From positions 6,107 through 70,106 of the forward strand of contig CAJONI010000052.1 of assembly GCA_905235995.1 (NCBI GenBank): 64,000 nt of DNA. The letters are read 5' to 3'. Under the pieces are notes generated by a model. The model had not been told where the DNA came from and did not search any database. It saw only the letters and a list, made by a program, of their open reading frames with translations. This stretch comes from an uncultured Bacteroidales bacterium (GTDB lineage Bacteria; Bacteroidota; Bacteroidia; Bacteroidales; UBA932). Of this stretch, positions 6,601 to 52,493 are shown one piece after another. The translations under genes and the position numbers were made by a program. The stretch's first letter is position 1, and every line of letters starts with the position of its first letter.

Positions 6601-6804
6601 ACCATCGGTTACGACTTTACGAGCCTCCTCCAGAAGCTCCCTCATTTCGCGCAGCGCGCCAGCACTTGCCGCGTTTACTTCTCCGGTGAGAATCTCCTTA
6701 CTTTCACCAAGTACTCCGGCATGGATCCGGAAGTGGGCGGCTACGATACTATCAAGTATCCTGTTTCCCGTATTTTCACCATTGGTGTGAAGATCAACTA
6801 TTAA
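3634..6804 (+). CDS. SusC/RagA-family TonB-dependent outer-membrane transporter
   Basis: There is a signal peptide; an alternative start MISKKLFGLL lies at 3673. A CarboxypepD_reg-like domain follows it directly (NVTVRGTVTDAVGPVVGAVVM), with no STN domain. Also present are a TonB-box/plug region (ESVVLGYGAQTKKKDLSASVG...LLIRGQGS), a long beta-barrel and a C-terminal aromatic residue (...IGVKINY). The gene is immediately followed by a SusD-like gene. Confidence 0.93.
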   Translation: MKTYKLFTLLPNIMISKKLFGLLAALVCLAMPFGASAQNVTVRGTVTDAVGPVVGAVVMSGDAHAITDADGAYTITVPSNAVLEVTCIGYKTQEAQVAGRAVINFILAEDVEMLGESVVLGYGAQTKKKDLSASVGIVGDPDKIAERPVQSITHMLQGQIPGVVVSNNGGNPNSGASLLIRGQGSRNGDSVLWVVDGVPGASVYSMNDIESIVVLKDAASAAIYGATSGAGGVILVTTKKANKGIHVEYDVVAGVRAASNLPEPLTAEEEILMKTISHQNAGLSLPTGWDTTINPWVGVQRTNWMDEVFRTAPYQRHSVTLNYGTDVFKSRLTFSYQDNQGVLNNTYKKNLAVRFNGEYQMNKWLKITEVLSYDDGFGRSVDDSSAHTGVLLSALWMPPSAEAYASAGPYAGSFGGTTTEDPEYIAKYGSNFADIHGDVVNPLRMLYASTQWGHNVDFWNTTGIHITPVKGLKISSVFSMDINNANSKSFSPARREVGKPDISNGLSLSASRAFKWRSESTVTYDRTFGKHTVGALAAFTMDHWERRGFGGSASGFENEDENYQFLKFSTTTNFNSDYFDGPDRNIAFVARASYSYDDRYFVTASWRRDYAGRLPNDHNSGDFPAVTGAWKASSEPFFPKNDVVNLLKVRASWGRVGNLGSIGMNYKSNTLSSSNWNEAPNYGIDKGTVFGTFWYAANSINNALTWETSEQFDAGIDMDMFTDRLSMSVDYYNKRTFNLIQDQTMGWPVTIGRNPMKVNQGEINNSGVEILVNWKDRVGKDFNYYVSANFAYNKNVVVSTGLLDDQGNPGKWTGGGDWGGVPWLYQSEPGQPLNSFFVIKTAGIFQSVEDIYDHQKDGKLIQPNAQPGDLKFIDFNNDGKIDTNDRQYVGSAMPKQTFAFSGGFNWKGFYADIMFQGVAGNKIAYVGKSRILSDVEGNFSRAKEIFNSWSPENPHTYLPRLSTNDPNGNYSQPSDFYIEDGSYLRLKNFTIGYDFTSLLQKLPHFAQRASTCRVYFSGENLLTFTKYSGMDPEVGGYDTIKYPVSRIFTIGVKINY

Positions 6805-6817
6805 TCTGACTGTGCAT

Positions 6818-8479
6818 ATGAAAAAGTATATTTCTATTGCTATTGCAGCCCTTTGCGCTCTCAGCTTCTCTTCCTGCAGCAATTTCCTGGATTATACATC
6901 CAAGGGTTTCTATACTGAGGATACGTTCTTCCAGAATGACCAGCAGGCCATGGATGCTGTCAAGAGCATCTATGCCCGTCTTCCTCAGGAAAGCCTGATG
7001 GGCCGCGAACTCTATTGGGAGCAGGCGGTTGCCTGTGACATCGTGTGGGGTAAGACCCGTTCCTTCAATACTATCGCCACCTACGAATACACCGGTGACG
7101 AGAGTGTGATTGTGGGAGTTTTCAAGAACTGCTACAATGAAGGCATGAACCGTTGCAACTGGATCATCAACAGCCTTCTCAAGAAGCAGGAGACTACTCC
7201 TCTTACCGCTATTGAAACCCGCAGTCTGGGTGAAGCATACTTTATGCGCGCCCATTACCACTTCATCATCGCCTACCGTTATGGTACCGACAAGCTGGGC
7301 GTTCCCTTCGTGGCCTACGAAGATGTGGAAGGTGGTTACAACAATGAGATTCCTCCGCAGTTGCCCACCGTCATGGACAACTATGCGTATATCGTGTCCG
7401 ACCTCAAGAAAGCCGAAGAGCTTCTGCCGCGTGTAGTTGACTACAGTGACGACGACAAGGGTCGTGCATGCAAGGAAAGCGCCGCTGCCATGATGGCCAA
7501 GGCTTATGCCTACTGGGCCACCTGGGACAAGAGTCAGTGGCCTAACGTGATCACCTGTGTGGACAGGCTGGAGAACAGCTACGGCCGTGCCCTGCACCCG
7601 GTGTTTACCGACCTCTTCGCCCCCGATGTGAGCAAGTTCTTCACCAATGAGTACTGCTGGGGTTATCCTTCCCGTGGCGGTACAGCCAAGGGCGGCTCTG
7701 TCGAGTTCCCGGGCATCTCCCTGGAAGACAAGGGATGGGGTAAGTACAACGGCTGGGGCCAGTTCAAGCCCACCCTGGATATCTACGAAGAAATGGCGAA
7801 GGACAATGTTGACGGTGTGAAGAACGAACGTCTTGCCGCAACCATCCTGGAATATGGCGACGAGTTCGAATTCTTCGGAGAGACCCGCAGGTTCTGGTCG
7901 GCTGTGAACGTGGAAGCCGGTTTCCAGATCTACAAGTTCCTGCAGCCGTTCGCTCCGGCCGACTGTCAGGAAAGAGGCTGGGTCCTGAACAACCCCGACT
8001 GGCCTTGCACCCTCATCAACTGGCCCATCGTCCGCTTCGCCGACTGCTTGCTCCTCCGCGCCGAGGCCAATCTCGTTGCCGGTAACGGAGCCGCTGCCGC
8101 TGCGGACATCAACAAGATCCGCCTGCGTTCCCATCTGCAGCCCCTGCCCGGCGCTATCGCCACCTGGACCGACCTCTATCACGAGCGTCGCTGCGAACTG
8201 GCCTTCGAGATGGCCAACGACCACGCCTATGACTGCAAGCGCTGGGCCTATTCCGGTGCACCCGAGATCAAGGCTCTTGCAGAAAAAGAACTGAATTCCC
8301 GTCCCCGCATCCGTAAATACGAAGACCGTATGGATCCCGATTCTCCTTGGGTAGAGGCTCTCTATGAGGACTATGTGAACAAGCTGCCTTGGAATGTCAA
8401 GTACATGACCTTCCCTTATCCTTCCGAACAGATCAACAAGTCTGCCGGCATGCTTCAGAACCCTCCGTCCTGGCAGTAA
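6818..8479 (+). CDS. SusD/RagB-family nutrient-binding outer-membrane lipoprotein
   Basis: The ATG is at 6818; the ORF-track start at 6812 is a GTG. The lipobox is MKKYISIAIAALCALSFSSCSN. SusD-type TPR-like helices are present (GEAYFMRAHYHFIIAYRYG, ADCLLLRAEANLVAG, LYHERRCELAFEM). It lies 13 nt after the susC stop. Confidence 0.9.
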   Translation: MKKYISIAIAALCALSFSSCSNFLDYTSKGFYTEDTFFQNDQQAMDAVKSIYARLPQESLMGRELYWEQAVACDIVWGKTRSFNTIATYEYTGDESVIVGVFKNCYNEGMNRCNWIINSLLKKQETTPLTAIETRSLGEAYFMRAHYHFIIAYRYGTDKLGVPFVAYEDVEGGYNNEIPPQLPTVMDNYAYIVSDLKKAEELLPRVVDYSDDDKGRACKESAAAMMAKAYAYWATWDKSQWPNVITCVDRLENSYGRALHPVFTDLFAPDVSKFFTNEYCWGYPSRGGTAKGGSVEFPGISLEDKGWGKYNGWGQFKPTLDIYEEMAKDNVDGVKNERLAATILEYGDEFEFFGETRRFWSAVNVEAGFQIYKFLQPFAPADCQERGWVLNNPDWPCTLINWPIVRFADCLLLRAEANLVAGNGAAAAADINKIRLRSHLQPLPGAIATWTDLYHERRCELAFEMANDHAYDCKRWAYSGAPEIKALAEKELNSRPRIRKYEDRMDPDSPWVEALYEDYVNKLPWNVKYMTFPYPSEQINKSAGMLQNPPSWQ

Positions 8480-8487
8480 ACCTTTAA

Positions 8488-10227
8488 ATGATTTCCGAAA
8501 TGAAAAAGATATTGTTTGCACTTGTCGGTATCGCTTTTCTGGTCGCATCCTGCGCCGATACGGACCGTTACATTGAGCAGCTTCCCTACAGGGTAATCGT
8601 CGACTACACGCCTTCGACGTTCAATATGGACGTGCCTGGCGATCTGACCCCCGATGCACTCTATCCCTGGATCTCCTACAACGGCAACGGCTCCTTTACC
8701 GTGCGCCGCAACACTTCCGGCGTTATCCGCCGCGCCGAATTCTCCATCTCTGGCAGCAAGTACAAATGCATCATCAACCAGAAGGCCCATGGCCTGGATG
8801 CAAAGGTCAATTCTGCCATGACCAAGAAGGATGCTGACGCGCAGACGGCCGAAATGAAGGTTTCGTTCTCCACTTCCTTCGACGATGACTATGCGTCATG
8901 GGGCTATATCTTCGGCACCAACCCGGATATGGGCGCCAACAAGGATTTTGAACAGGGCAGTTTTACGCCTGGTGACAAGTCCATCGTTCTGTCCGACGTG
9001 GACCCTGAGACCAACTATTACTTCTGGTCTTACATCGTCTCCACCGAAGGTGACAAGATTTATTCTTCTGTCGTGGGTATCTCCAAGCCTGTCCTCGTGA
9101 GGAAGGGTGAGAGCCTCCAGGCAGCCATCGACGCAGCTCCGGAATTCGCAGAGGTGCGTGTCGAAGGCGGCCAGACCTACGAAGGCACCATCAAGCTCCG
9201 TGACAACGTGACCGTGAGCGGTGGCTGGGACAGCAACTTCGAGACCCAGGATATGAACAACCGTACCGTGATCGATGGTAAGGACAAGAAGCTCTGCGTG
9301 GAATCGAAGGTCGGTGCCACTAATGCCAAGATCAATGGCTTTGACATTATCCGTGGCTCCTCTTCCGGCATCGTGTTCAACGGCAATCTCACCGTGGAAT
9401 GGTGCCGCGTGGCCTTCTGCGTAAACAGCGGCCAGGGCGGCGCCATCTGCTGCACCGAGCAGAAGGGTGACAACCTGATTCTCGCGAACAGCATCATCGA
9501 GTACAACAAGGCCGACGCACACGGCGGCGGTATCGCCATCAACGGTGCCGGCACCTCCGTGAAGGTCATCAACTGCCTGTTCCGCGGCAACGCCTCCATC
9601 GCCCAGTACGGTTACACCGGCGCCATCCACGGCCAGGCCGGCGTTCAGGCCTATGTGGTGAACTCCACCTTTGTGGAGAACGTGAACTGGCGTGACGGTA
9701 GCTCCGCGACCTCTTCTCCTTGGAGCGCCGTGATGTTCCGTAACGGCGGTACTCACATCGAGTTCGTGAACAACATCGTGGCAGGCAACTGGTACTTCCT
9801 GCCGGGTGTGGCCGACAAGCCCGAAGAGCATCCCGACCGTTATGACATGCCCATCAAGCCCATGTTCCTCCTGGAGATGCAGGTCCGCGTTGCCGACTTC
9901 AACGAAATCGGTGGTTCCGATGCCAATTATATCGTCCGTAGCAACATCCTGGGCGGTGTGAATGAGAGCGAAGCCATCCACCGTGCAGGCAGTGACGCTG
10001 CCCGCGCCGCCGCGATTGCCGCTTGTACCTTCGTTCCCAACAACGAATTCCACACCCTCTTCGTGAATGCCGCCGCCGGTGACTTCCACCCGGCCGGAGC
10101 TGCGCTCACCACCGGCGAGAACACGTCCAAGACGTCTGATCTCCTTGGTTCCTACACCACCGACCTCGACGGTAATCCCCGTATCGTAGGCGGCAAGATC
10201 AACGCCGGTTGCTACCAGGCTCAGTAA
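8488..10227 (+). CDS. Surface lipoprotein with BACON/Ig-like N-terminal modules, a right-handed parallel beta-helix and a choice-of-anchor-Q-like C-terminus; candidate surface glycan-binding protein or enzyme
   Basis: The lipobox is (MISE)MKKILFALVGIAFLVASCAD, with an alternative ATG at 8500. PbH1-type repeats are present (GGAICCTEQKGDNLILANSIIEYNKADAHGGGIAINGAGTSVKVINCLFRGNAS...VVNSTFVENV). The tail DLDGNPRIVGGKINAGCYQAQ is typical of choice-of-anchor Q domains. The gene occupies the position usual for SGBPs, directly after susD. Confidence 0.7.
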   Translation: MISEMKKILFALVGIAFLVASCADTDRYIEQLPYRVIVDYTPSTFNMDVPGDLTPDALYPWISYNGNGSFTVRRNTSGVIRRAEFSISGSKYKCIINQKAHGLDAKVNSAMTKKDADAQTAEMKVSFSTSFDDDYASWGYIFGTNPDMGANKDFEQGSFTPGDKSIVLSDVDPETNYYFWSYIVSTEGDKIYSSVVGISKPVLVRKGESLQAAIDAAPEFAEVRVEGGQTYEGTIKLRDNVTVSGGWDSNFETQDMNNRTVIDGKDKKLCVESKVGATNAKINGFDIIRGSSSGIVFNGNLTVEWCRVAFCVNSGQGGAICCTEQKGDNLILANSIIEYNKADAHGGGIAINGAGTSVKVINCLFRGNASIAQYGYTGAIHGQAGVQAYVVNSTFVENVNWRDGSSATSSPWSAVMFRNGGTHIEFVNNIVAGNWYFLPGVADKPEEHPDRYDMPIKPMFLLEMQVRVADFNEIGGSDANYIVRSNILGGVNESEAIHRAGSDAARAAAIAACTFVPNNEFHTLFVNAAAGDFHPAGAALTTGENTSKTSDLLGSYTTDLDGNPRIVGGKINAGCYQAQ

Positions 10228-15834: not shown

Positions 15835-18642
15835 ATGAAAAAATCTCTGCTTCTCCTCGCAATTTTATGCCTGGCTGCCCTGAGCGGATGCCAGAAGAGC
15901 ACGCCCGTCAGCCCCATAGATCAAGTACATGTTTTCAATGGCACCGGCTTCCACGGCCATACCTATCCCGGCGCCACGACCCCCTATGGCCTCGTCCAGC
16001 TCAGCCCCGATACCCGGACCTACGGCTGGGACGGAAGCTCCGGCTACCACTACAGCGACAGCGCCATCCTGGGCTTCAGCCATACCCACCTCTCCGGTAC
16101 CGGCTGCGCCGACCTCGGCGACTTCCTCGTGACCCCCGGACTGGGCACAGTCGAGCCACTGCAATTCAGCCATGACGACGAATACGCCCGTCCCGGCTAC
16201 TATAAGGTGGATTTCCCCGCCGGCATCACAGCCGAACTCACCGCCGCACCCCATACCGGCGTCCACCGCTATACCTTCAGCGGTGAAGGCCCCCGCAGGA
16301 TACTTGTCGACGCCCTCCACGGCATAGGCGACGAAACCCACGCCACCCAGGCCAGCCTCCAGGCAGTGGCCCACGACGAGATCAAGGGCCACCGCAGGGT
16401 GGACGGATGGATCAGGGACAGGGACATCTACCTCTCAGCGAAATTCTCAGTGCCCTTCCTCGACGCCGTCCAGCCAGTTCCGGGCAAACTCCTGCTCAGC
16501 TTCGCCGACGACGTGAGAGAAATCACCATCTACGCCGGCATCTCCTATACCGGAGCGGAGGCCGCCAAGGGCAACCGCGTCGTGGAGACCCGGGGCCGCA
16601 GCTTCGACGAAGTCTGCGCCATCACCACCGACGACTGGAGCAGCTCCCTCGGCAGCATTGTCGTGGAAGGCGGCCCCACGGAGCAGTTCTACACCTGCTT
16701 CTACCATACCCTCGTGTGCCCCAACAACATAGCCGACACAGGCCAGCCCCCGTACTATTCCACGCTCTCCCTTTGGGACACTTTCCGCAGCTGGAACCCA
16801 CTCCAGACCATCATCAATCCCGGCCTCGTGGGCGACATGGCCTCCAGCATGCTCAAGATGTACCACGACTGGGGCGAACTTCCCATCTGGCCGCTGGCAT
16901 ATGGCGAGACAGGATGCATGATAGGATACCACAGCGTCAGCGTACTGGCCGACGCCTGGCTCCGCGGCATACGCAGCTTCGACGGCAAGGATGCCCTGAC
17001 GGCGATGGTCGCGTCGTCGAACAAGAACAAGCAGCCCGCTTCCGAACTCTATGTGAAATATGGCTATATACCCGCCGACCGCATGGCCCAGTCGGTGTCG
17101 CAGACCCTCGAGTTCGCCTATGACGACTGGTGCATAGCCCGCATGGCAGAGAGCCTGGGCCTCAATGATATAGCAGCGGAATACGACCGCCGGGCCCAGA
17201 GCTGGCGCAACGTGTTCGATCCCGCCACCGGCTTCATGCGCGGCCACCGCAGCGACGGCTCATGGATGACTCCATTCGACCCGATAGGCAGTACACGCGA
17301 ATATACCGAAGCCATCCCCTGGCAGTCCCGCTTCTTTGTGCCGCACGACCCTGCAGGACACGCCGAAATGATGGGCGGCCGCGACGCCATGCTCGCCGCC
17401 CTCGACTCGCTCTTCACTTTCGAAGACCGCAGTGCCGAGGTGAGGGTGTCCGACATCACCGGTCTCAAGGGCCAGTATGCCCACGGCAATGAGCCCAGCC
17501 ACCATATGGCCTGGCTCTACAACTGGTACGGCAAGCCCTCGATGAGCCAGAAGGTGGTCCGCGAACTGCTCGGTGAGATGTACGACATCACTCCTGAAGG
17601 CGTGTGCGGCAACGAGGACTGCGGCCAGATGAGCGCCTGGTATGTGCTCGCGTCGCTGGGCATCTATCCCGCATGCCCGGGGACGGGAGAATATGTCCTG
17701 GCCGCGCCTTTGTTCAGGAAAGCCGCCATAGCCCTCGGCAACGGCAACGCCCTTACGATCACGGCAGACCACCCGGGCCGCCCGTATGTCTCCGACGTGA
17801 AGCTCAACGGCAGGACGCTGCCCTGCAACTATATCACCTACGACGAGATAATGGCCGGGGGCAAGCTTGAGTTCTCCCTCTCCTCGAAGCCGGTGAAATC
17901 GCGTGAGGACCTGCCCGCCCCGTATTCGATGAGCACGCATTCCATGGTCTCGACTCCCGCGGTCCTGGGCGACATCGACCTCTTCCGCGACAGGACCGAA
18001 ATCACGCTGGCTACCCGCACCGAAGGCGCCGCCATCCACTATACCCTCGACGGCAGCGAACCCACGCAGCAGAGCCCGGTTTACACCGGACCCTTCACCC
18101 TCGAAGAGACCACCCGCATCCGCGCCCGCGCCTGGAAGGAAGGCTGCGAAGCTTCGCCGGAGGCCTCCATCCCCGTGGTCAAGGCCTTCTTCCAGCCCGC
18201 CGACGATGTGACGGGGCTGGGACACGGCTGCAGCTATACATATCACCGGGGTGTCTTCACATGTACTGCAGACGTGCTGGCGAGCCCGGTCGTGTCCCGA
18301 GGCACCTTGCCAATGCCCTCGATCGACCAGGCCCCGGATGAAGACCACTTCGGCTACGTGTTCACGGGCTGGATAGACGTTCCGGAAGACGGCATCTGGA
18401 GCTTCGCCCTCATGAGCGACGACGGCTCCGTGCTCGACATCGACGGGGTGAGGGTGGTCGACAACGACGGTTCCCACTCCGCAATCGTGGCGACGGGCCG
18501 CATCCCCCTGCTGAAAGGCCTGCACCCCTACAGGCTAGTCTATCTCGAAGACTATGAGGGCAATTCGCTCCGCTGGGCCTGGAAAGCCGAGGGAGAAGCC
18601 CGCTTCAAACCCATCGACGTTGATTATCTGTATCGCAAATAG
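15835..18642 (+). CDS. GH92 alpha-mannosidase with a C-terminal CHB_HEX_C-like domain and a PA14 domain; copy a
   Basis: Lipobox LAALSGCQ. GH92 signatures are FHGHTYPGATTPYGLVQLSPDT, GQYAHGNEPSHHMAWLYNW and CGNEDCGQMSAWYVL. These are followed by AAIHYTLDGSEPTQQSPVYTGPF...RARAWKEG (chitobiase/hexosaminidase C-like) and a PA14-like end (about 18226-18639; HFGYVFTGWIDVPEDGIWSFALMSDDGSVLDIDG). Confidence 0.9.
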   Translation: MKKSLLLLAILCLAALSGCQKSTPVSPIDQVHVFNGTGFHGHTYPGATTPYGLVQLSPDTRTYGWDGSSGYHYSDSAILGFSHTHLSGTGCADLGDFLVTPGLGTVEPLQFSHDDEYARPGYYKVDFPAGITAELTAAPHTGVHRYTFSGEGPRRILVDALHGIGDETHATQASLQAVAHDEIKGHRRVDGWIRDRDIYLSAKFSVPFLDAVQPVPGKLLLSFADDVREITIYAGISYTGAEAAKGNRVVETRGRSFDEVCAITTDDWSSSLGSIVVEGGPTEQFYTCFYHTLVCPNNIADTGQPPYYSTLSLWDTFRSWNPLQTIINPGLVGDMASSMLKMYHDWGELPIWPLAYGETGCMIGYHSVSVLADAWLRGIRSFDGKDALTAMVASSNKNKQPASELYVKYGYIPADRMAQSVSQTLEFAYDDWCIARMAESLGLNDIAAEYDRRAQSWRNVFDPATGFMRGHRSDGSWMTPFDPIGSTREYTEAIPWQSRFFVPHDPAGHAEMMGGRDAMLAALDSLFTFEDRSAEVRVSDITGLKGQYAHGNEPSHHMAWLYNWYGKPSMSQKVVRELLGEMYDITPEGVCGNEDCGQMSAWYVLASLGIYPACPGTGEYVLAAPLFRKAAIALGNGNALTITADHPGRPYVSDVKLNGRTLPCNYITYDEIMAGGKLEFSLSSKPVKSREDLPAPYSMSTHSMVSTPAVLGDIDLFRDRTEITLATRTEGAAIHYTLDGSEPTQQSPVYTGPFTLEETTRIRARAWKEGCEASPEASIPVVKAFFQPADDVTGLGHGCSYTYHRGVFTCTADVLASPVVSRGTLPMPSIDQAPDEDHFGYVFTGWIDVPEDGIWSFALMSDDGSVLDIDGVRVVDNDGSHSAIVATGRIPLLKGLHPYRLVYLEDYEGNSLRWAWKAEGEARFKPIDVDYLYRK

Positions 18643-18645
18643 ATC

Positions 18646-20574
18646 ATGAAAAAAGCATTGCTTTTCCTGGCAGTATTGCTGCCGACACTCGCCGCGGCCC
18701 AGTTCCCGGTCATATTGCATTCCCACAACGACTATGAGCGCACGGCCCCCTTCTGGGAGGCCTACTCGCAGCACTGCACCTCTATCGAGGCCGACGTGTT
18801 CCTGGTGGACGGCCAGCTGCTAGTGGGCCACGACAGGCGTGACCTCCGGCCCGAACGCAGTTTCGAGGCCATGTATGTCAAGCCTATCGTACAGATGTTC
18901 CGCGCCAACGGCGGCCGTGCCTGGAAACGTAGCGACGCCCGCCTGCAGCTGATGGTGGAGCTCAAGAGCGACACGGAGCCCGAGCTCTCCGCCGTGATAG
19001 CGCTGCTTCAGCAGTATCCCGACGTGTTCTGCAGCGACAACGGGGTGAAGGTAGTCATCACGGGTAACACGCCGGACAAGGCACAGTTCGCCGACTATCC
19101 CGCATTCGTGAGTTTCGACGGCGACCTGCGCGAGGACTACACTCCCGAGCAACTCGCCCGCATCGGCCTGTTCAGCAACAATTTCCGCCTCTACTCCGCA
19201 CACTGGAACGGCAAGGGACGCATGATGGTGCCCGAGCTCGATGCAGTTGAGAAAGCCATAGCCAGGGCCCACGCCGCCGGAAAGCCAATACGCTTCTGGA
19301 ACAGTCCCGAGAGCGTTACGACCTATTTCACTTTCTGGAAACTCGGCGTCGACATCATCAACACTGACCATCCGGCAGCCGCGGCACAGTTCTTCGAGAA
19401 CTGGGGCAACAAGAACTTCATCATGGGCGAGCACGCCACCGCTTCCGGGGTGACAGGCACCAGGCGCCTCGACCGCGCGACCCGCGACTTCTCCGGCTTC
19501 CAGAACGAGAAGATGAAGATTTCCAAGCCCATAGAGACTTACACCCCGAGCTACCGCAGCGACAACGCCTCGCCGAAGAAGATCAGGAACGTGATCTTCC
19601 TCATCGGCGACGGCATGGGCTTCAACCACGTGATGGCTGCGGCCTACGCCAACGGCCTCGAACTTTCCATGCTCAAGATGAAGGCCACCGGCATACAGGT
19701 CTACAATCCTCAGGACGACTTCATCGGCGACTCGGCAGGCGGCGGAAGCAGCCTTGCCACGGGCGAACCCTCATGGACCCGCCACATCTCCTCCAACTGG
19801 GACGGCTCCGAGCCGATACCCTCGATGACCGACCTCTTCGGCTCGATGGGCAAGTCGACCGGTGTGCTGACCCTCGGCGACGTGGCCGACGCCACTCCGG
19901 CAGCCTACTTCGCACATTGCTCCGAGCGTGACAGCCTCGAACACATCACTTCCTACTGGCTGACTTCCAAGGTCGACCTGATCTGCGGCAGCGGCCGCGA
20001 CTACGTGGAAGGCCGCCGCTCCGACGGCATCGACATGCTCAAGGGTGTCAAGGACAATGGCTACAGCTATATCACTGACGTCAAGGGGATAGACTCCACC
20101 CCTGGCAAGGTGCTCTGCATCGACGACAAGCTCGGCCGCTCGGCCGAGGAAGCCAACCTCGACCTGCTGGCCGAAGCCACCCGCCGCTCCATAGCCATGC
20201 TGCAGAAACGCTCCGACAAGGGCTTCTTCCTCATGGTGGAAGGAGCCAAGATCGACTACGCCGGCCACGCCAAGACCGTCCCTGCGGCTATCATCGAGAC
20301 CTTCAGCTTCGACCTGGCGGTGGCTGAGGCCATGCGCTTCGCCGACGCCGACGGCCAGACCCTCGTCATCGTGACCGCCGACCACGAGACCGGCGGCCTG
20401 ACCCTGCTCGACGGCGACCTTTCGACCGGACACGTGCTGGCGACCTTCGTCTCCGACGACCACACCCCTTCGGTGGTGCCCGTCTTCGCCTACGGCCCCG
20501 GCTCCTACGCCTTCTGCGGCACCTACCGCAACTACGAACTGACCCGCATACTCAAGAGCCTCGTGACAAAATGA
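18646..20574 (+). CDS. Fusion protein: PLC-like phosphodiesterase (AIM6/GDPD_2-type TIM barrel) at the N-terminus and a PhoA-type alkaline phosphatase at the C-terminus
   Basis: There is a signal peptide. The N-terminal half, HSHNDYERTAPFWEAYSQHCTSIEADVFLVDGQLLVGHD, has the H-x-H-N-D-Y ... E-x-D ... VGHD pattern of the PLC-like PDE superfamily. The C-terminal half (from about 19580) has PhoA blocks VIFLIGDGMG, IGDSAGGGSSLATGE, ADATPAAYFAH, MVEGAKIDYAGHA, VTADHETGG and DDHTPSVVPVFAYGPGS. Confidence 0.82.
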   Translation: MKKALLFLAVLLPTLAAAQFPVILHSHNDYERTAPFWEAYSQHCTSIEADVFLVDGQLLVGHDRRDLRPERSFEAMYVKPIVQMFRANGGRAWKRSDARLQLMVELKSDTEPELSAVIALLQQYPDVFCSDNGVKVVITGNTPDKAQFADYPAFVSFDGDLREDYTPEQLARIGLFSNNFRLYSAHWNGKGRMMVPELDAVEKAIARAHAAGKPIRFWNSPESVTTYFTFWKLGVDIINTDHPAAAAQFFENWGNKNFIMGEHATASGVTGTRRLDRATRDFSGFQNEKMKISKPIETYTPSYRSDNASPKKIRNVIFLIGDGMGFNHVMAAAYANGLELSMLKMKATGIQVYNPQDDFIGDSAGGGSSLATGEPSWTRHISSNWDGSEPIPSMTDLFGSMGKSTGVLTLGDVADATPAAYFAHCSERDSLEHITSYWLTSKVDLICGSGRDYVEGRRSDGIDMLKGVKDNGYSYITDVKGIDSTPGKVLCIDDKLGRSAEEANLDLLAEATRRSIAMLQKRSDKGFFLMVEGAKIDYAGHAKTVPAAIIETFSFDLAVAEAMRFADADGQTLVIVTADHETGGLTLLDGDLSTGHVLATFVSDDHTPSVVPVFAYGPGSYAFCGTYRNYELTRILKSLVTK

Positions 20575-22181
20575 AAATTCTCCGCCTTGCCGCAACTGCG
20601 GTTCTGACGCTGCTTTCCGCAGGACTGCTTCAGGCCCAGGGCCTGACGAGCGGCCCCTATGAGCTGCCCTACAAGAACACTTACGTGAAGAACCTCTTCG
20701 TGTCCGAGAATCCATACCGGACCATGAAGATGGAGACTCTCAAGCCGAAGAGCTTCGCCGAGGCAAAGAAGATTCTCCCCGCGCCCTTCTGGGAGGGGCA
20801 TGAGAAGGAAGTGGAGATGTACTGGCACGCCTGGCAGATAGCCGTGGGCAACATACGCCAGCCGCAGGAAGGTTCGGGCTTCGTGAGCCCTTTTCTCGAC
20901 GTGGCCTACAACGGCAACATCTTCATGTGGGACGATTCCTTCATGATGCTCTTCGCCCGCTACGGCTACCGCTTTTTCCCCTTCCAGCGAACTCTCGACA
21001 ACTTCTACGCGAAGCAGCACCAGGACGGCTTCATCTGCCGCGAGATCCGCTCCGACGGCAGCGACTGCTTCGAGCGCTACGACCCCACGTCCACGGGGCC
21101 GAACCTTCTTCCCTGGGCCGAACTCCTGTACTACAAGCAGTTCGGCGACATCGACCGCCTGCACCGCGTGTTTCCGGCCCTGGTGGCCTATGCACAGTGG
21201 TGGAAGCTCAACCGCACCTGGAAGGACGGCACCTACTGGAGCTCCGGGTGGGGGACAGGCATGGACAACCTGCCGCGCGTGGAGGAAGGCTACAACCAGA
21301 TCTTCTCCAACGGACACATGACCTGGCTCGACACCAACCTCCAGCAGTATCTCGTCAACGACTGCCTGATGCAGATAGGCTTCTACATCGAGCGCTGGCA
21401 GGAGATCGAGGAGATGGAAGACGAGATGAAGTTCCTCAAGGCCTGGATCAACGACAACATGTGGGACCCTGACACGCGCTTCCTATACGACGTCTACGCC
21501 GACGGCTCGCGCTCCAAGGTGAAGGGAATCTCGGCTTTCTGGGCACTCCAGACCGACGTGCTCGAGGGCGAGAGGCTGGACGCGCTGGTGGAGCACCTGC
21601 GCGACACCGCGGAGTTCAACCGCCCGCACCGCGTGCCCTCGCTGAGCGCCGACCATAAGAAATACAATCCCAACGGACGCTACTGGCAGGGCGGAATCTG
21701 GCCCGGAGCCAACTACATGGTGATTGACGGCCTGTGGAAGAGGGGGTACCGCGAGCTCTGCCGCGAGGTGGCCGACAACCACTTCGGCGGGGTGTTCCAG
21801 GTGTGGAAAGACACCGGCACCTTCTGGGAATACTACGCGCCGGAGCGCATCGAGCCCGGCTTCATGGCCCGCAGGGACTTCGTGGGCTGGGCGGGACTGC
21901 CGCCCATCGCGGAGTTCATCGAATGCATCCTGGGCATACGTTCCGACTTCGCCGGGGGCAAGGTGGAGTGGGACCTCCGGCAGACCGAGGCCCACGGCAT
22001 TGAGCGCTATCCATTCGGTCCGGAGGGAGTGCTGGGACTCAAGGTCGCCAGGCGCGCCTCTGCGGAAGCGAAGCCCGAGATCACAGTGACCACCAACGTC
22101 CCCTTCGACCTTACGGTCCTCTGGGGTGACGGCCAGAGCGCCACGGTGCACGTTGACAAGAGTGGAAAGATCAAACTTTAA
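20571..22181 (+). CDS. (alpha/alpha)6-barrel glycoside hydrolase, GH63 / MGH1-like (trehalase-fold)
   Basis: The start overlaps the upstream stop (ATGA at 20571-20574). There is a signal peptide. Motifs FMWDDSFMMLFARYG, SGWGTGMDNLPR and YWQGGIWPGANYMVIDGLWKRGY are typical of the GH63/GH37-fold family. Confidence 0.7.
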   Translation: MKILRLAATAVLTLLSAGLLQAQGLTSGPYELPYKNTYVKNLFVSENPYRTMKMETLKPKSFAEAKKILPAPFWEGHEKEVEMYWHAWQIAVGNIRQPQEGSGFVSPFLDVAYNGNIFMWDDSFMMLFARYGYRFFPFQRTLDNFYAKQHQDGFICREIRSDGSDCFERYDPTSTGPNLLPWAELLYYKQFGDIDRLHRVFPALVAYAQWWKLNRTWKDGTYWSSGWGTGMDNLPRVEEGYNQIFSNGHMTWLDTNLQQYLVNDCLMQIGFYIERWQEIEEMEDEMKFLKAWINDNMWDPDTRFLYDVYADGSRSKVKGISAFWALQTDVLEGERLDALVEHLRDTAEFNRPHRVPSLSADHKKYNPNGRYWQGGIWPGANYMVIDGLWKRGYRELCREVADNHFGGVFQVWKDTGTFWEYYAPERIEPGFMARRDFVGWAGLPPIAEFIECILGIRSDFAGGKVEWDLRQTEAHGIERYPFGPEGVLGLKVARRASAEAKPEITVTTNVPFDLTVLWGDGQSATVHVDKSGKIKL

Positions 22182-22192
22182 AATAGCATGAT

Positions 22193-23044
22193 ATGAAGAA
22201 ACTGTTCCTTATTCCCCTGGCTCTTTGCCTGGCAGCCCTGACGCTGCTGCCTGCGGGCTGCAAGGCCCAGAAAGATGAGCCGCTCAAGGTAATGTCGTAC
22301 AACATCCGCTACGGAACCGCCGACGACGGCGACTTCGTGTGGGAAAACCGCCGCGAAGCCGCGGCCGCCATGGTCCAGGACCAGCGCCCGGCCGTGTTCG
22401 GCGTGCAGGAAGCCCTTGACTTCCAGCTCACTTACCTCGAGGAGAACTGCCCCGGCTACAAGTACGTCGGCGTAGGCCGCGAGGACGGCGTGCACGACGG
22501 CGAGCACATGGCCGTGTTCTACGACACGGAGCGCGTGGAACTCGAGGACTGGGGAACCTATTGGCTCTCCGAGACGCCCGATGTGCCTTCTTTCGGTTGG
22601 GATGCCGCCTGCAAGCGTACCGCCACCTGGACGCTCATGCATGACAAGAAGACCGACAGGCACTTCTATTTCGTGAACACCCATCTCGACCATGTAGGCC
22701 GTGAGGCCCGCCGCAATGGCCTGGCACTCGTAGTCGACCGTATCGCCGCCATGAATCCCGATGGCTACCCGATGGTGCTCTGCGGCGACTTCAACGTCAC
22801 TCCCGACAACCCCTGCCTCAACGACCTCCGCGGAATGATGCAGGATGCCCGTGAAACGGCTCCCGTGACCGACTACCAGGTGACCTGGCACGACTGGGGC
22901 AAGGTGAAGGGCACAAAGCCCATCGACTTCATCTTCTACAGCGGCTTCTCCGGCTGCAGCGAGTTCGCCCGCGTGACCCAGCCCTACCTTGGCTGCCCCT
23001 ATGTCTCCGACCACTATCCCGTGACCGCCATCCTGCAATATTAA
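22193..23044 (+). CDS. Endonuclease/exonuclease/phosphatase (EEP) family lipoprotein
   Basis: Lipobox LLPAGCKAQ. EEP blocks are LKVMSYNIRYG, AVFGVQEAL, FVNTHLDH, CGDFN and the terminal SDHYPV. Confidence 0.85.
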   Translation: MKKLFLIPLALCLAALTLLPAGCKAQKDEPLKVMSYNIRYGTADDGDFVWENRREAAAAMVQDQRPAVFGVQEALDFQLTYLEENCPGYKYVGVGREDGVHDGEHMAVFYDTERVELEDWGTYWLSETPDVPSFGWDAACKRTATWTLMHDKKTDRHFYFVNTHLDHVGREARRNGLALVVDRIAAMNPDGYPMVLCGDFNVTPDNPCLNDLRGMMQDARETAPVTDYQVTWHDWGKVKGTKPIDFIFYSGFSGCSEFARVTQPYLGCPYVSDHYPVTAILQY

Positions 23045-23056
23045 AGTCTTAAAGAT

Positions 23057-23950
23057 ATGAAATTCAGAACATTATTCCTTGCCGCAGCGGCCGGCCTGCT
23101 TATCTTTTCCGGATGCTGCAGCAAGAAGTCACATGAAGTTGAACACGTATTCTACATCGGTCTTGACGGCTGGGGCGCGTACAGCGTGGAGAAGTCCGAG
23201 ATGATCCACGCCAAGCAGATGATGGCCAAGGGCGCCTATACCCTCAAGAAGCGTACGGTACTGCCTTCTAGCAGCGCCGGCAACTGGGAATCCATGTTCA
23301 CCGGCGTGGGTCCCGAGGTTCACGGCTTCTTCGAGTGCTGCTCTCAGACTCCCGACCTCGAGCCCCGTCTGATCCATCGCAACGGACTGTTTCCCAATAT
23401 TTTCCAGCTGCTGCGCGATAAGGAACCCGACGCCGAGACCGGCGTGATCCACCAGTGGAGCGGCATCAAGTACCTGGTCGACACGCTCTCTCTGAGCTAT
23501 CACGCCCATGTGCCTCAGTACGAGCTCTGCGAGGTCGCATGCAACTATATCAAGGAAAAGAAACCCCGCCTGGCAGCTATCATCTGGGACGAACCCGACG
23601 GTGTCGGCCATGGAGCAGGACATGACACACCTGCCTACTACGAGAAGATCAAGGAACTTGACGCCTGGGTCGGCGAAGTTCTGAAGGCCATAGACGAGGC
23701 CGGAATCCTCGACAAATCCGTCATCATCCTGACCTCCGACCACGGCGGAATAGACCATGGCCATGGCGGACGCACGATGATGGAGATGGAGACCCCGCTC
23801 ATCATCACGGGCAAGGGCATAAAGAAAGGCTACTGCTTCGACGACCTGAGTGTCATGCAGTATGACGTCGCTGCCATCATGGCCGACCTCCTCGGCGTCG
23901 AACCGCACCGCGCCTGGTTCGGCCGTACTATCCCCGAAATCTTTGAATAG
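23057..23950 (+). CDS. Alkaline-phosphatase-superfamily enzyme, type I phosphodiesterase / nucleotide pyrophosphatase (NPP)-like lipoprotein
   Basis: Lipobox LIFSGCCS. Motifs are FYIGLDGWG, LPSSSAGNWESMFTGVGPEVHGF (nucleophile plus TGxxPExHG block), WDEPDGVGHGAGH and ILTSDHGG. Confidence 0.8.
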   Translation: MKFRTLFLAAAAGLLIFSGCCSKKSHEVEHVFYIGLDGWGAYSVEKSEMIHAKQMMAKGAYTLKKRTVLPSSSAGNWESMFTGVGPEVHGFFECCSQTPDLEPRLIHRNGLFPNIFQLLRDKEPDAETGVIHQWSGIKYLVDTLSLSYHAHVPQYELCEVACNYIKEKKPRLAAIIWDEPDGVGHGAGHDTPAYYEKIKELDAWVGEVLKAIDEAGILDKSVIILTSDHGGIDHGHGGRTMMEMETPLIITGKGIKKGYCFDDLSVMQYDVAAIMADLLGVEPHRAWFGRTIPEIFE

Positions 23951-28281: not shown

Positions 28282-29628
28282 ATGAAAAGAAGAGATTTCC
28301 TCCGTTATTCCGCTCTCGGCGCAGCTGCGACCGTAGTTCCGTTCCAGCTTGCCGGCGCCGCTCCCGCTGCCCCGGCTGCCAAGGCAAAGTCGAAGAACGC
28401 CAAGGTCCAGATGGGCTTCATCGGCCTGGGCCAGCAGGCCATGTACCTGCTAAGCGGCTTCATGTCGATGGACGACGTTCGCGTGGTGGCTGGCTGCGAC
28501 GTGTACGACATCAAGCGAGATCGTTTCGCGCGCCGCGTGAAGGAGCACTACCAGTCCAAGGGCGAGAAGAAGGTGAAGGTCGACATGTATGAGGACTATC
28601 AGGACCTCCTGGCTCGTCCCGACATCGACGCCGTGGTCATCGCTGTGCCCGACCACCAGCATGCCGTCATCGCCATCGCCGCCTGCAAGGCCGGCAAGGA
28701 CATCTACCTTGAGAAACCCATGACCCTGACCATCTACGAGGGCCAGCAGCTGGTGAAAGCCGTGCGCAAGTACAACCGCATCCTGCAGGTCGGTTCGCAG
28801 CAGCGTTCCAGCGAGGAGTTCATCCACGCCGCGACCCTGGCGCGCGAGGGCGAACTGGGCCGGATACGCAAGCTGAAGGTGTACGTGGGCCGCAACGACG
28901 TGAACCCCGTGACCGCCGCTCCCGTGCCCTGCAATCTTCCGCGCATGGAAGTCCCCGCAGGACTCAACTGGGACAAGTGGCTCGGCCCCCTGCCCGAATG
29001 GGTGTACTACCACTCCGACCTCGACCCGGTCATCACTCCCGAGCAGAACGAGCAGCTGTGGGGTGCCTGGCGCTGGTACAAGCCCATGGGCGGCGGCCTG
29101 ATGACCGACTGGGGCGCCCATATGTTCGACATCGCGCAGTGGGCCCTTGGCAAGGACGGCAGCGGCCCCGTGGAGGTGATCCCTCCGGGCTACAGCTTCT
29201 ACGACGCCCTGACCTTCAAGTATGACAACGGTGTGATAGTCTCCGAAGAGCCGTTCGACGGCAGCACGCCGGGCGTGCAGATCTACGGCGACGACGGCTG
29301 GGTGAAGGTGAGCCGCGGCCAGTTCGAGGCCTCGAATCCTGCCTGGAACATGCCTGAGACCAAGAACGACGACGACGTGCCCTACGAGACCAAGGTGGGC
29401 CATCACCGCACCTTTGTCGAGTCGGTGCTCAGCCGCCACGACCCGAATGTGCCCGTGGAAGTGGGCCACTCTTCATGCACCGTCTGCAATCTCGGCAACA
29501 TCGCCATGGAGCTCGGACGCCCCGTGGTCTGGAACCCGATAGTGCAGAAGTTCATGCACGATCCTGAAGCCACGAAACTGCTTCAGTATAAGTATCGTGA
29601 GGGTTTTGAACACGCCCTTGAGGTATGA
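28282..29628 (+). CDS. TAT-exported Gfo/Idh/MocA-family NAD(P)-dependent oxidoreductase
   Basis: Twin-arginine signal MKRRDFLRYSALGAAATVVPF. Rossmann start VQMGFIGLGQQAMY, and AVVIAVPDHQHAVIAIAACKAGKDIYLEKPMT (EKP motif). Confidence 0.88.
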   Translation: MKRRDFLRYSALGAAATVVPFQLAGAAPAAPAAKAKSKNAKVQMGFIGLGQQAMYLLSGFMSMDDVRVVAGCDVYDIKRDRFARRVKEHYQSKGEKKVKVDMYEDYQDLLARPDIDAVVIAVPDHQHAVIAIAACKAGKDIYLEKPMTLTIYEGQQLVKAVRKYNRILQVGSQQRSSEEFIHAATLAREGELGRIRKLKVYVGRNDVNPVTAAPVPCNLPRMEVPAGLNWDKWLGPLPEWVYYHSDLDPVITPEQNEQLWGAWRWYKPMGGGLMTDWGAHMFDIAQWALGKDGSGPVEVIPPGYSFYDALTFKYDNGVIVSEEPFDGSTPGVQIYGDDGWVKVSRGQFEASNPAWNMPETKNDDDVPYETKVGHHRTFVESVLSRHDPNVPVEVGHSSCTVCNLGNIAMELGRPVVWNPIVQKFMHDPEATKLLQYKYREGFEHALEV

Positions 29629-32600
29629 GAAGGCTTTTCGCTTTAACCATTGCGCTTGTCGTGCTCTCCGCCTGTGGCGGCGGGCACGACGCCGCTTTCG
29701 GCCCTGCCGACGAGGCGGCGTTCCTGCAGCCTCCCAAGGACAACTACCCCGAGACCTGGTTCCATTTCATCGGCGGCAACGTCTCGAAGGAGGGCATAGA
29801 CGCCGACCTTGAGGCCATCGCCGGGGCCGGTATTTCCGGCATCCACTGGTTCCATGGCTATTTCGGCGGCCCCTGGCCTGCCACGGGACATCAGCTGACC
29901 ACCCTCAGCCCCGAGTGGGAGGACATGGTGAGCTATCTCGGCCGCAGGGCCGACAGCCTTGGCCTGAGGCTCACGATACAGACCTGCCCCGGCTGGTCCA
30001 TGGCCGGCGGGCCCTGGATCACGCCCGAGGAGGCCATGCGGATGCTTGTCTGGTCGCGTACCGACATTCCCGCAGGGAGCAGTGCCGTCGCGCCGCTGCC
30101 CGTCGGCGAGCCTTCCTCCGAGGAGTGGCGTGACTACCGCGACATCTCCGTGCTGGCCTTTCCCACGCCGCTCGGCGATACGGGAGAGCCGCTGAGACCC
30201 ATTGTCACCGAGGCTTCCGATCCGCACTGGAAGGCGCTGCTGGAAGGCAGTCTGCCCGGGGGGCTCGATATAAAGGCGGGCTCCACCGCGCGGGTGGCGT
30301 TTACTCTTCCAGAGGGTACGGTGGTCCGTACGCTTCAACTGCCGCCCATCGGCGCCATCTCACACGCCTAGGTCTACGACCCCGGTATCAAGGTCCGTCT
30401 TACGGCGGAGACTTCCGATGGGGAAGCGGTGCTGGTCGATGCGGCCCTGCCCATGGGCAACTGGCAGGACGGCAGCCCTGCCGACTTCGAGTTCGCCTGC
30501 AATGAAGCATTTGACGTTCAGCGCTATGTGCTGACCTTGACCAATGCCCATCCGGGCCATATAGAAGCGATACGCCTCTTCTCTGCCGCGCGCAAGAACA
30601 GCTGGCGGGGCGAGGCGGGCTGGACGCTGACCGGAAAGGAACTGTATCAGGAGCACACTGTGCAGGACCCCAGGGCTTTCGTGCAGCTTGAAAACGTGCT
30701 CGACCTGAGCGACTGCCTCCTGGCCGACGGCACTCTCGACTGGACTGCACCGGACGGCGATCTGCCGCAAGGAAGCTGGACGGTGCTCCGCATCGGCCAC
30801 GTCAACTCCGGACGGCAGAACGGTCCGGCACCTCCCGAGGCCACGGGCTGGGAATGCAACAAGTTCGACCCTGCAGGGGCCGAGAGCCAGTTCTCGCACT
30901 ATGTGGGCATGCTGCAGGACGGGCCGCTGGGCGGTCTTGCCGGAGGCATGCTCATGGACAGCTGGGAGTGCAAGACCCAGACCTGGACCGTTGGGATGGA
31001 AGACGAATTCGCCGACGCCGCGGGCTACGAACTCTCCCGCAGGCTGCCTGCGCTGATGGGCTATGTGATTGACAGCCAGGAGGCTACGAGCCGTTTCCTG
31101 ACCGACTGGCGCCGTACCGTGAACTTCCTGTACTGCGAGTATTTCTTCCGTCTCATGACCGACATGGCCCACGAGAAGGGCATGAGGGTGGAATATGAGA
31201 CGGCTGGCGGAGACGTGGTGACCATGGACCCTCTGGAATACTTCAAGTATGCCGACATACCCATGTGCGAATTCTGGCAGCCCTTCTCCGAGGGTTATGT
31301 GGGCGATCTGGATTTCAAGCCCATACGTCCCACTGCCTCGGCAGCGCACATCTACGGCAAGCGCCGCGTGGACGCCGAGAGCTTCACCAGTTTCTCACTC
31401 ACCTGGGACGAACACTGGCAGATGCTCCGCGAGGTGGCTTCGTTCAACATGGCTCAGGGCGTGACGCACAACGTGTTCCATACCTATACCCACAATCCTC
31501 AGATTGGCTTCCTGCCTCCGGGGACAAGTTTCGGCAACGGCATCGGGTCGCCGTTCCTGCGTGGCCAGACCTGGTGGAAGTACATGCACGAATTTACGGA
31601 CTGCCTGGCGCGCATGAGCTACATGCTGGAGCGCGGCCTGCCCGTGAAAGACGTGCTCTGGTACCTCGGCGACGAGGTGGGACACAAGCCATTCCAGTAC
31701 ACGGGCAGCGGCGCCCGCCAGTCGGGCGACATCCGTTTCCCGGAGGGCTTCGACTACGACTACTGCAATCCCGACGTGCTGATCAACAGGCTGAGTGTCA
31801 AGGACGGACGTCTGTTTACGCCTGAAGGGATCTCGTATTCCGTGCTCTGGATTCCGGAGAACGAGCGCATGCTGCCCGAGACCGTGGAAAGGCTCTACGA
31901 GCTGATCTATGACGGTGCGCGGGTCATTGCCGCTCCGCCCGTGGCTCCCGCGACACTGCGGCCCGGAGTGGAGGACCGTTTCGAGAGAGCTGTCGAATCG
32001 GTATGGGGCGAGGCAGAGGCCGGCTCCATAAGCTCTCTCGGAAAAGGCCGGCTTGCCGTCGGCACAGGCCTCGACGAGGCCCTCGTCGCTTTCGGCCTGC
32101 AGCCGCACTTCGCCGATGGCGGCGCTGAACTGTCGTGGTGCGAACGCGAGGCTCCCGGCGCCCGCTGGTTCTTCATTGCCCCCGCGCCTGGACGTGGTTT
32201 CACCGGGACGGTGCAGCTGCGAGGGGAGGGGACTCCCTGCTGGTGGGATCCGGTCGACGGAAGCATAGGCTCGTTGGAGTTCGTCCGCGAAGGCTCGATG
32301 GTTCAGGTCGCTCTCGACCTGGCCAGGGCCCAGAGCGGTTTCGTGGTGCTTCGCGATGAGGTCTCGGACAGCCTGAAGCCGGCGTTTCCCGTGCTTTCCG
32401 CTGAGAATGGGATCGTTCCCGAAGGATGGAAGCTCAGTTTCCCCATGGGTTGGGGAGCTCCTTCCGGTCCTGTCGCCCTGGAGCGGCTCGTTCCCTGGAT
32501 GGATCTTCCGATAGGTAAGGAGGGACGCGCCTTCTCCGGCACGGCGACCTACGAGGCGTCGTTTGTCGTTCCGGAGGGACAGGCCGACGCCGACATGGTG

Positions 32601-52448: not shown

Positions 52449-52493
52449 AGTCAGAGCTTTTCCGTTCATTTGAAATATACATCGTACCCCATC

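Follow-up and report, generated by a model that had tools for sequence, protein, structure and literature searches.

We have analyzed a 64,000-nucleotide stretch of DNA from an uncultured Bacteroidales bacterium (GenBank assembly GCA_905235995.1, contig CAJONI010000052.1, positions 6,107 to 70,106 of the forward strand), referred to here as the window. Since it carries a SusC/SusD-like pair together with glycan-degrading enzymes, the region is regarded as a polysaccharide utilization locus (PUL). Within this PUL lies a gene, called the fusion below, whose 642-residue product joins a TIM-barrel domain, probably of the glycerophosphodiester phosphodiesterase (GDPD) and phospholipase C (PLC)-like superfamily, to a PhoA-type alkaline phosphatase (AP). 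The immediate gene string consists of a GH92 α-mannosidase carrying CHB_HEX_C and PA14 domains, the fusion, a GH63-like glycosidase, an EEP-family phosphatase and an NPP-type protein (Table 1). The GH92 stop codon stands 3 nt ahead of the fusion's ATG, and the ATG of the GH63-like gene overlaps the fusion's TGA by 4 nt (ATGA).

Table 1. Position, strand and basis of assignment of the fusion, its parts and other genes of the window
Feature	Coordinates	Strand	Basis
Whole fusion gene (642 aa; GDPD/PLC-like plus PhoA-type)	18646..20574	+	uninterrupted ATG-to-TGA open reading frame, stop included
Signal peptide, residues 1-19, MKKALLFLAVLLPTLAAAQ	18646..18702	+	direct sequence reading
Putative N-terminal TIM-barrel phosphodiesterase domain, residues ~22-252	18709..19401	+	model, Foldseek, hhalign, conservation
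Inter-domain segment, residues ~253-310	19402..19575	+	DNA, conservation, low model confidence
C-terminal PhoA-type AP domain, residues ~311-642	19576..20571	+	Pfam, PDB search, Foldseek, residue map
Upstream GH92 α-mannosidase, C-terminal CHB_HEX_C and PA14	15835..18642	+	Pfam
Downstream GH63-like / MGH1-like glycosidase	20571..22181	+	Pfam; distant YgjK/GH63 match
EEP-family phosphatase, BT3783 homologue	22193..23044	+	Pfam, PDB search
Small NPP-type protein (type I phosphodiesterase / AP superfamily)	23057..23950	+	Phosphodiest E = 6e-23, ENPP4/5 matches
AP-superfamily protein with PA14	1984-3540	-	
SusC-like TonB-dependent transporter	3634-6804	+	Pfam
SusD-like protein	6812-8479	+	Pfam
Metallophos protein with twin-arginine translocation (TAT) signal	58455-59486	+	
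NPP with BACON and Laminin_G_3 domains	59493-61376	+	
Metallo-β-lactamase-fold protein with TAT signal	61400-62320	+	

Architecture, distribution and export of the fusion

An earlier note on this DNA had read the gene as a single polypeptide joining a PLC-like phosphodiesterase to a PhoA AP. The open reading frame is indeed intact, and the motifs that the note quoted are all present: H25-S-H27-N28-D29-Y30, E48-A-D50-V and V-G-H62-D in the N-terminal half, and DGMG (D322), DSA (S363), DATPAA (D415/T417), EGAKIDYAGH (E532/D537/H541), ADHETGG (D579/H580) and DHT (H606) in the C-terminal half. The domain sizes it gave, about 250 and 340 residues, are likewise right. Between the domains lies a segment of ~55 residues that is well conserved in sequence (motifs NKNF, GVTGT, LDxAT and FxGFxNE), yet residues 252-287 have a predicted local distance difference test score (pLDDT) <50 in the AlphaFold2 model of the full-length protein (overall pLDDT 78). 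From about residue 274 this segment is common to the standalone APs of the subfamily, and AP-only matches begin at residues 273-312. Its DNA is in frame and contains neither stop codons nor homopolymer runs. A frameshift or assembly error merging two separate genes was rejected on the basis of this in-frame junction and of five independently assembled contigs that encode an identical 642-aa protein.

The fusion is widespread in Bacteroidota and common in databases rather than rare. Full-length homologues of 62-93% identity make up at least 120 clusters at 90% identity, and the complete architecture is present, down to 36% identity, in ten species-level genomes, counted from one-genome-per-species assemblies. 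Carriers include uncultured Bacteroidales, a Phocaeicola metagenome-assembled genome (MAG), three Dysgonomonas species (among them D. gadei ATCC BAA-286), a Tannerellaceae MAG, Sphingobacterium and Chitinophaga. In a crude neighbor-joining tree, all 11 fused proteins group by their AP domains in a single clade, to which none of the 70 standalone APs belongs; this is consistent with a single old fusion. Among the best 150 representatives of the N-terminal domain (N-domain), 41 have the AP domain, and another 88 stand alone at a length of ~255 aa. Public annotation and precomputed Pfam labels of the fusion's homologues read 'alkaline phosphatase' only.

The protein had also been called secreted. 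A signal peptide is present, and as read from the sequence it is of the signal peptidase I (SPase-I) type, with AAAQ at its end and no lipobox cysteine; Gln19 is nearly invariant, and A18/Q19 are kept among homologues. Since the protein combines this signal with the absence of both a lipoprotein cysteine and a type IX secretion system (T9SS) or other C-terminal sorting domain, it is more likely periplasmic than secreted.

The two domains

By its sequence, the C-terminal half is unambiguously a complete PhoA-type AP. Pfam Alk_phosphatase (PF00245) matches residues 313-587 with 157.9 bits against a cut-off of 24.4 (E = 5e-46), and the best solved relative in a PDB sequence search is the compact TAB5 alkaline phosphatase (2w5v; E = 2e-44, residues 311-637). 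In Foldseek, the AP half of the AlphaFold2 model matches 2w5v, 2w5x and 2iuc with E ~1e-23 and target-normalized TM of 0.82-0.84. The score for the NCBIfam equivalog PRK10518 is 109.9 where 540 is required, so the protein is a member of the PhoA family and not an orthologue of E. coli PhoA. With the MG1655 PhoA sequence as reference, D322, S363, D415, T417 and R428 of the fusion correspond to D51, S102, D153, T155 and R166, and E532, D537, H541, D579, H580 and H606 to E322, D327, H331, D369, H370 and H412. All 11 of these catalytic and metal positions are invariant in 36 full-length fusion homologues; the position of PhoA K328 is Tyr (Y538) in the fusion. Under this mapping, S363 is predicted to be the nucleophile and R428 to bind phosphate, with D322, D415, T417, E532, D537, H541, D579, H580 and H606 as the predicted metal ligands, which would make up two Zn sites and one Mg site. 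Retention of R166 in the AP superfamily points to a monoesterase, and its equivalent in the fusion therefore argues for monoesterase activity.

A fold search with the full-length model returned alkaline phosphatases only, and the N-domain was therefore modeled separately. Residues 1-262 alone gave eight β/α repeats with a pLDDT of 83 and a predicted template modeling score (pTM) of 0.82. The top Foldseek matches of this model are GDPDs (1zcc, 4r7o, 3no3, 2pz0 and B. subtilis GlpQ, 5t9b), and 9f5m, 4rw3 and 9yd8 rank at the top as well; a GDPD domain from phage K gp155 and phospholipases D of the GDPD fold are also among these matches. The matches span E = 1e-5 to 1e-3 at TM 0.5-0.6, and because generic, unrelated TIM barrels were listed too, the fold search taken alone is moderate evidence.

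A narrow profile of 14 N-domain sequences had no relevant match in the PDB, and its underpowered hhalign comparison with single GDPD domains gave 1-2% probability with the expected motifs paired. When a 79-sequence profile was searched against the PDB (hmmsearch, E up to 10), ten of the 11 matches were GDPDs, the best at E = 0.002, and these were co-linear with the profile at xIExDV...HD and GVDxIxTD. Aligned by hhalign to a GDPD alignment composed of E. coli UgpQ, E. coli GlpQ and two tandem GDPD domains from relatives, the same profile reached 94.9% in local mode and 96.3% in global mode (E = 1.3e-9, whole domain). H27-N28 was paired with H12-R13 of UgpQ, E48/D50 with E39/D41, H62 with H54, and E105-x-K107 with IEIK. 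The two strongest PF03009 matches among the relatives, in P0158 and P0193, were rejected as direct evidence, since each falls on a canonical GDPD domain that stands in tandem with the N-domain and not on the N-domain itself.

An exhaustive profile search found the N-domain in 2,850 representative clusters. GDPD_2 matches occur in 66 of 71 diverse relatives, and 13 of the 20 examined singly pass the cut-off; the examined relatives have no PI-PLC-X Pfam match. Across 141 family members, H25, H27, N28, D29, Y30, E48, D50, H62 and Y77 are conserved at 91% or more, as are D/E105, K107, D158, S177, W187, R216, W218 and D241, with H27, E48, D50, H62, E105 and K107 at 94-100%. In the predicted structure, the conserved residues are located at or just past the C-terminal ends of all eight strands, the face that holds the active site in canonical TIM barrels. 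The catalytic and metal-binding set that we propose comprises H27-N28, E48, D50, H62, E105 and K107, and also D158, S177, R216 and D241. H27 and H62 would be the catalytic histidines, and N28, E48, D50 and E105 would form the metal site. The resulting His-Asn...Glu-x-Asp...His...Glu pattern is nearer to the Ca2+-dependent phosphatidylinositol-specific phospholipases C (PI-PLCs) than to the His-Arg of GDPDs. Sequence and model together indicate that the N-domain is probably an active member of the GDPD/PLC-like superfamily that forms a distinct HxHNDY subfamily. The PLC-like assignment of the earlier note thus came through the profile-HMM check, with support that is transitive through the family: family-level profiles, fold and catalytic register agree with it, but the window protein's own Pfam scores, given below, stay under the cut-offs.

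In other proteins the N-domain is also fused to PAP2, Metallophos, AcpA-type phosphoesterase and Y_phosphatase3 domains. Such recurrent fusion to unrelated phosphomonoesterase folds supports the coupling of a diesterase to a monoesterase, and we regard these pairings as the best available evidence that the product of the diesterase is a phosphomonoester needing a second enzyme.

These and other N-domain architectures were noted in P0149, P0198, P0199, P0217, P0228, P0141, P0239/P0208 and P0135/P0170. Besides the partners just named, of which the AcpA-type phosphoesterase comes with a lactonase propeller, they include a metallo-β-lactamase, a rhodanese and an alginate lyase, and tandem duplicates of the N-domain occur as well. 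P0122, in which the N-domain is joined to a fragment of a GH63-like protein, was not accepted as an independent fusion, since it seems to have arisen by a deletion that removed the AP domain.

The PUL and its relatives

The window is a PUL-type cluster of very large size. It contains about 15 glycoside hydrolase genes, which comprise two GH27, two GH106, several GH78, two GH92, a GH63-like, a GH9, a GH3 and a GH127 gene and one for a WbsX-like protein. At least seven genes are of phosphoesterase type, namely the fusion, the EEP gene, two of NPP type and those for the AP-superfamily protein with PA14, the Metallophos protein and the metallo-β-lactamase-fold protein. This unusual density of phosphoesterases among glycosidases hints at a heavily phosphorylated target glycan. 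The nearest solved relatives of the adjacent GH92 are α-1,3-mannosidases. The neighboring EEP protein matches the B. thetaiotaomicron mannose-6-phosphatase BT3783 (4c1r, deposited as a mannosyl-6-phosphatase) with E = 3.8e-40 and 3mpr with E = 2.2e-40, a relation of homology only.

A core of GH92, fusion and GH63-like genes is shared by the window and the related loci L001, L002, L004, L005, L007 and L083-L090; it is kept in every Bacteroidales or Dysgonomonas locus examined, including those with rearranged surroundings, and the GH63-like gene is always adjacent to or near the fusion homologue. When window genes were compared with their homologues in L001, L002, L004, L005 and L007, the GH63-like protein retained 66-88% identity between distant carriers, versus 46-67% for the fusion, 48-65% for GH92 and 35-74% for EEP. 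This much stronger conservation suggests that the specificity of the GH63-like enzyme is very constrained. SusC and SusD genes lie directly upstream in L007, L083 and L089. The compact PUL of D. gadei (L007) reads FecR, SusC, SusD, GH92, EEP, fusion, Metallophos with PA14, GH63-like and ROK kinase, and L089 reads SusC, SusD, an unknown gene, EEP, GH92, fusion, GH63-like, EEP and GH125. The D. gadei locus was considered as the published arabinogalactan PUL42, and this was rejected; PUL42 is a different locus.

Several features of these loci were recorded apart from the fusion itself. In L085 and L086 (2430-8948), a gene for a 2172-aa SpvB/Rhs/YD-shell toxin-like protein and a small open reading frame stand between GH92 and the fusion homologue, an insertion that breaks the otherwise fixed adjacency of the two. 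Two genes downstream of the fusion homologue in L087 (14384-17341) and L088 (14190-17147), a GH27 α-galactosidase and an EEP phosphatase domain are joined in one protein of 985 aa, a further case in this system of a glycosidase fused to a phosphatase. In the window, a GH106 α-L-rhamnosidase appears to be split on the plus strand into 29625-30371 (profile positions 2-138) and 30453-32882 (176-741); the split may reflect a frameshift, a pseudogene or an error in the local sequence. Two further plus-strand genes encode single polypeptides of 1460 aa (40677-45059; GH78-like and GH3) and 1531 aa (46288-50883; GH127 and GH92). The GH78-GH3 fusion is kept in L083 (1467 aa), but GH127 and GH92 are separate adjacent genes there. 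No Pfam match at E <= 0.001 was found for the open reading frames at 8488-10227 (+), 38132-40012 (+) and 51942-54905 (-), of 579, 626 and 987 aa; the first, which follows SusD, may encode a surface glycan-binding protein.

Proposed role, alternatives and known systems

With fair though limited confidence, we propose that the fusion is a putative PUL-linked, two-step remover of phosphodiester-linked substituents from imported phosphorylated mannoglycans. From the architecture, the intact conserved catalytic residues of both halves and the conserved synteny, we infer two activities, their order, their location and their substrate as follows. SusC/SusD would import oligosaccharides with phosphodiester-linked substituents, such as fungal-type glycosyl-1-phosphate-6-mannose bridges or glycerol-, inositol- or ethanolamine-phosphate decorations. 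Candidate source glycans would be fungal phosphomannan or heteromannan, inositol-phosphate-anchored glycans and glycerol-phosphate-decorated polymers. The metal-dependent N-terminal domain would then hydrolyze the diester, and the AP domain, aided by EEP phosphatases, would hydrolyze the monoester, which may stay with the glycan or leave with the small molecule, to free phosphate. GH92, the GH63-like enzyme and other exo-glycosidases would then proceed. The earlier note had taken the removal of phosphate to be a precondition for the action of exo-glycosidases at this locus, and the conserved GH92-fusion-GH63-like core with its neighboring BT3783 homologues fits this idea; in some other lineages the fusion stands in loci free of glycosidases, and its chemistry is thus not bound to the debranching of glycans.

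A number of results weigh against this role or against its generality. The N-terminal half of the window protein falls below every Pfam cut-off: GDPD_2 (PF13653) scores 21.8 bits against 27 and covers residues 214-244 only, and a Pfam scan gave no match to the GDPD (PF03009) or PI-PLC-X models. In L006 and L010 the fusion precedes SusC, SusD and Metallophos genes with no glycosidase, and in the Sphingobacterium locus L008 it stands with FecR, SusC-like, α/β-hydrolase and Metallophos genes, again with no glycosidase; the context in L003 and L009 is uninformative. From the glycosidase-free SusC/SusD and Metallophos loci it follows that the fusion is not intrinsically a glycan-debranching enzyme. 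The adjacent GH92 was considered as a mannose-phosphate 'uncapping' enzyme and rejected as such, given its resemblance to α-1,3-mannosidases; CcMan5 is the GH92 that is specific for mannose-phosphate (PMC9522356). The EEP phosphatases of these loci could already handle mannose-6-phosphate, and the AP domain may thus have a redundant role or another one. A separate N-domain gene lies within 10 kb in only 1 of 70 standalone-AP loci, which leaves Rosetta-stone support weak. Full-text literature searches, with most subscription journals outside their scope, found no description of the fusion and no characterized HxHNDY member. The domain combination, which the earlier note did not recall as characterized, thus has no characterized example in that literature, common as it is in databases.

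A wider reading is offered tentatively, as a possibility more than an expectation. In it, the HxHNDY TIM-barrel family would be an unrecognized class of glycan phosphodiesterases. Its members would cut at phosphorus, in bridges of the sugar-1-phosphate-6-mannose, inositol-phosphate or glycerol-phosphate type, unlike the known 'uncapping' glycosidases of GH92 and GH38. The GH92-fusion-GH63-like triad would then define a new pathway, widespread in Bacteroidota, by which fungal-type mannoglycans that are phosphorylated, or else inositol-phosphate-anchored glycans, are processed, and the fusion would let the monoester pass straight from the diesterase to the active site of the AP.

The most serious competing explanation, which we think rather unlikely, is general organophosphate scavenging. 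In it, the fusion mineralizes small phosphodiesters for phosphorus nutrition, the diesterase acting before the AP, on glycerophosphocholine, -ethanolamine or -inositol from deacylated phospholipids or on teichoic-acid fragments, and its presence in glycan PULs is secondary. The homology of the N-domain to canonical GDPDs, which act on glycerophosphodiesters, speaks for this explanation, and B. subtilis GlpQ (5t9b), one of the fold matches, degrades wall teichoic acid together with PhoD under phosphate starvation. The glycosidase-free arrangements in L006, L010 and L008 also agree with it. In the clade of the window (at least 44% identity), however, the fusion is locked between GH92 and the GH63-like gene, with tight or overlapping junctions, in many species and through rearranged loci. 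PA14 carbohydrate-binding domains are present on the neighboring GH92 and phosphoesterases, and the regulators of these loci are of PUL type (FecR/ECF or AraC-hybrid), with no Pho regulators seen at them.

Release or processing of inositol-phosphate-anchored glycans is a speculative and improbable alternative. Here the N-domain would act like a PI-PLC or GDPD on an inositol-phosphate diester of fungal or plant glycosyl-inositol-phosphoceramides (GIPCs), glycosylphosphatidylinositol (GPI) anchors or deacylated phosphatidylinositol mannosides; the AP would remove the inositol phosphate, GH92 would trim α-mannose, and the MGH1-like GH63 would cleave the α-mannosyl (or glucosaminyl) inositol core. 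Its attraction lies in the H-N...E-x-D...H...E constellation, which fits Ca2+-dependent PI-PLCs better than the H-R of GDPDs and which in PLC-delta1 is H311/N312/E341/D343/H356/E390. The GH63-like partner belongs to a mannosylglycerate-hydrolase-like group that cleaves α-mannosides of small polyol acids, and the minimal Dysgonomonas PUL has two glycosidases only, four phosphoesterase domains and a ROK kinase. Set against these are the lack of a PI-PLC-X Pfam match in the fusion or its relatives, the apparently periplasmic location of the fusion where lipid-anchored substrates would need cleavage at the surface, and the lack of inositol-catabolism genes identified nearby. Very improbable is an artefact of merged genes, or a non-catalytic N-terminal remnant or binding module on an ordinary AP, since the bare 'alkaline phosphatase' database label and the GDPD_2 score under its cut-off are outweighed by the five identical contigs, the continuous architecture in at least 120 clusters and ten species-level genomes, the single AP clade, the clean in-frame junction and the 91-100% conservation of the putative catalytic residues in 141 diverse members; the artefact part is effectively refuted.

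Exo-glycosidases are stopped by phosphodiester bridges and phosphate decorations on a wide range of glycans from microbes and fungi, such as yeast phosphomannan, teichoic-acid-like polymers, GPI and GIPC anchors and capsules. To our knowledge, a glycosidase followed by an EEP phosphatase is the only route described so far in gut Bacteroides. If the proposed role is correct, an operon-locked diesterase-monoesterase fusion would add a second, chemically different route, and it would open a family of ~2,850 sequence clusters to functional study for the first time. Such enzymes could supply tools for trimming phosphorylated glycans, for example in mannose-6-phosphate engineering of therapeutic enzymes, and with cultured carriers such as D. 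gadei ATCC BAA-286 the question can be put to a direct test.

Both superfamilies are known already. The C-terminal ~330 residues resemble TAB5 AP (2iuc/2w5v) and E. coli PhoA in all PhoA catalytic and metal residues, R166 included, but the fusion adds an N-terminal phosphodiesterase domain of 250 residues, predicted as such, and has Tyr in place of K328; the fused APs also form a clade of their own, apart from standalone Bacteroidota APs. With the GDPDs (UgpQ/GlpQ, B. subtilis GlpQ, T. tengcongensis 2pz0 and P. distasonis 3no3) the N-domain shares the fold, the His pair, the Glu/Asp/Glu site and ExK. It differs from them in its ~15% identity, in having HxHNDY instead of HRG, with Arg replaced by Asn28 as in PI-PLCs, and in missing the main GDPD Pfam model, and it forms a separate family. 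B. subtilis GlpQ and PhoD offer a parallel in which a GDPD-fold diesterase and an AP-type enzyme dismantle a phosphodiester-linked glycopolymer and free its phosphate, but there the work is divided between two proteins, PhoD falls outside the PhoA family, and both are regulated by phosphate starvation and lie outside a SusC/SusD locus.

Phosphate removal before glycosidases is also known, with different chemistry, from the mannan PULs of B. thetaiotaomicron. When this species degrades yeast mannan, BT3774, a GH38 enzyme, cleaves the Man-1-phosphate linkage, after which the EEP phosphatases BT2630/BT3783 take off the phosphate that is left (Cuskin et al. 2015, PMC4978465); BT3783 with mannosidases removes phosphorylated branches of yeast mannan and N-glycans (PMC4978465). 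The fusion loci share with these PULs the scheme of uncovering the phosphate, dephosphorylating and then applying exo-mannosidases, and they carry BT3783 homologues and GH92, in one case with GH125. That case, L089 with its GH125 and second EEP gene, resembles the BT3781-3784 segment of MAN-PUL2, in which BT3781 is the GH125. The first step in B. thetaiotaomicron, however, is made by a glycosidase at the anomeric carbon and not by a phosphodiesterase. The fusion loci, in which no GH38 was seen, differ in carrying a PLC-like diesterase-AP fusion in addition to the EEP enzymes.

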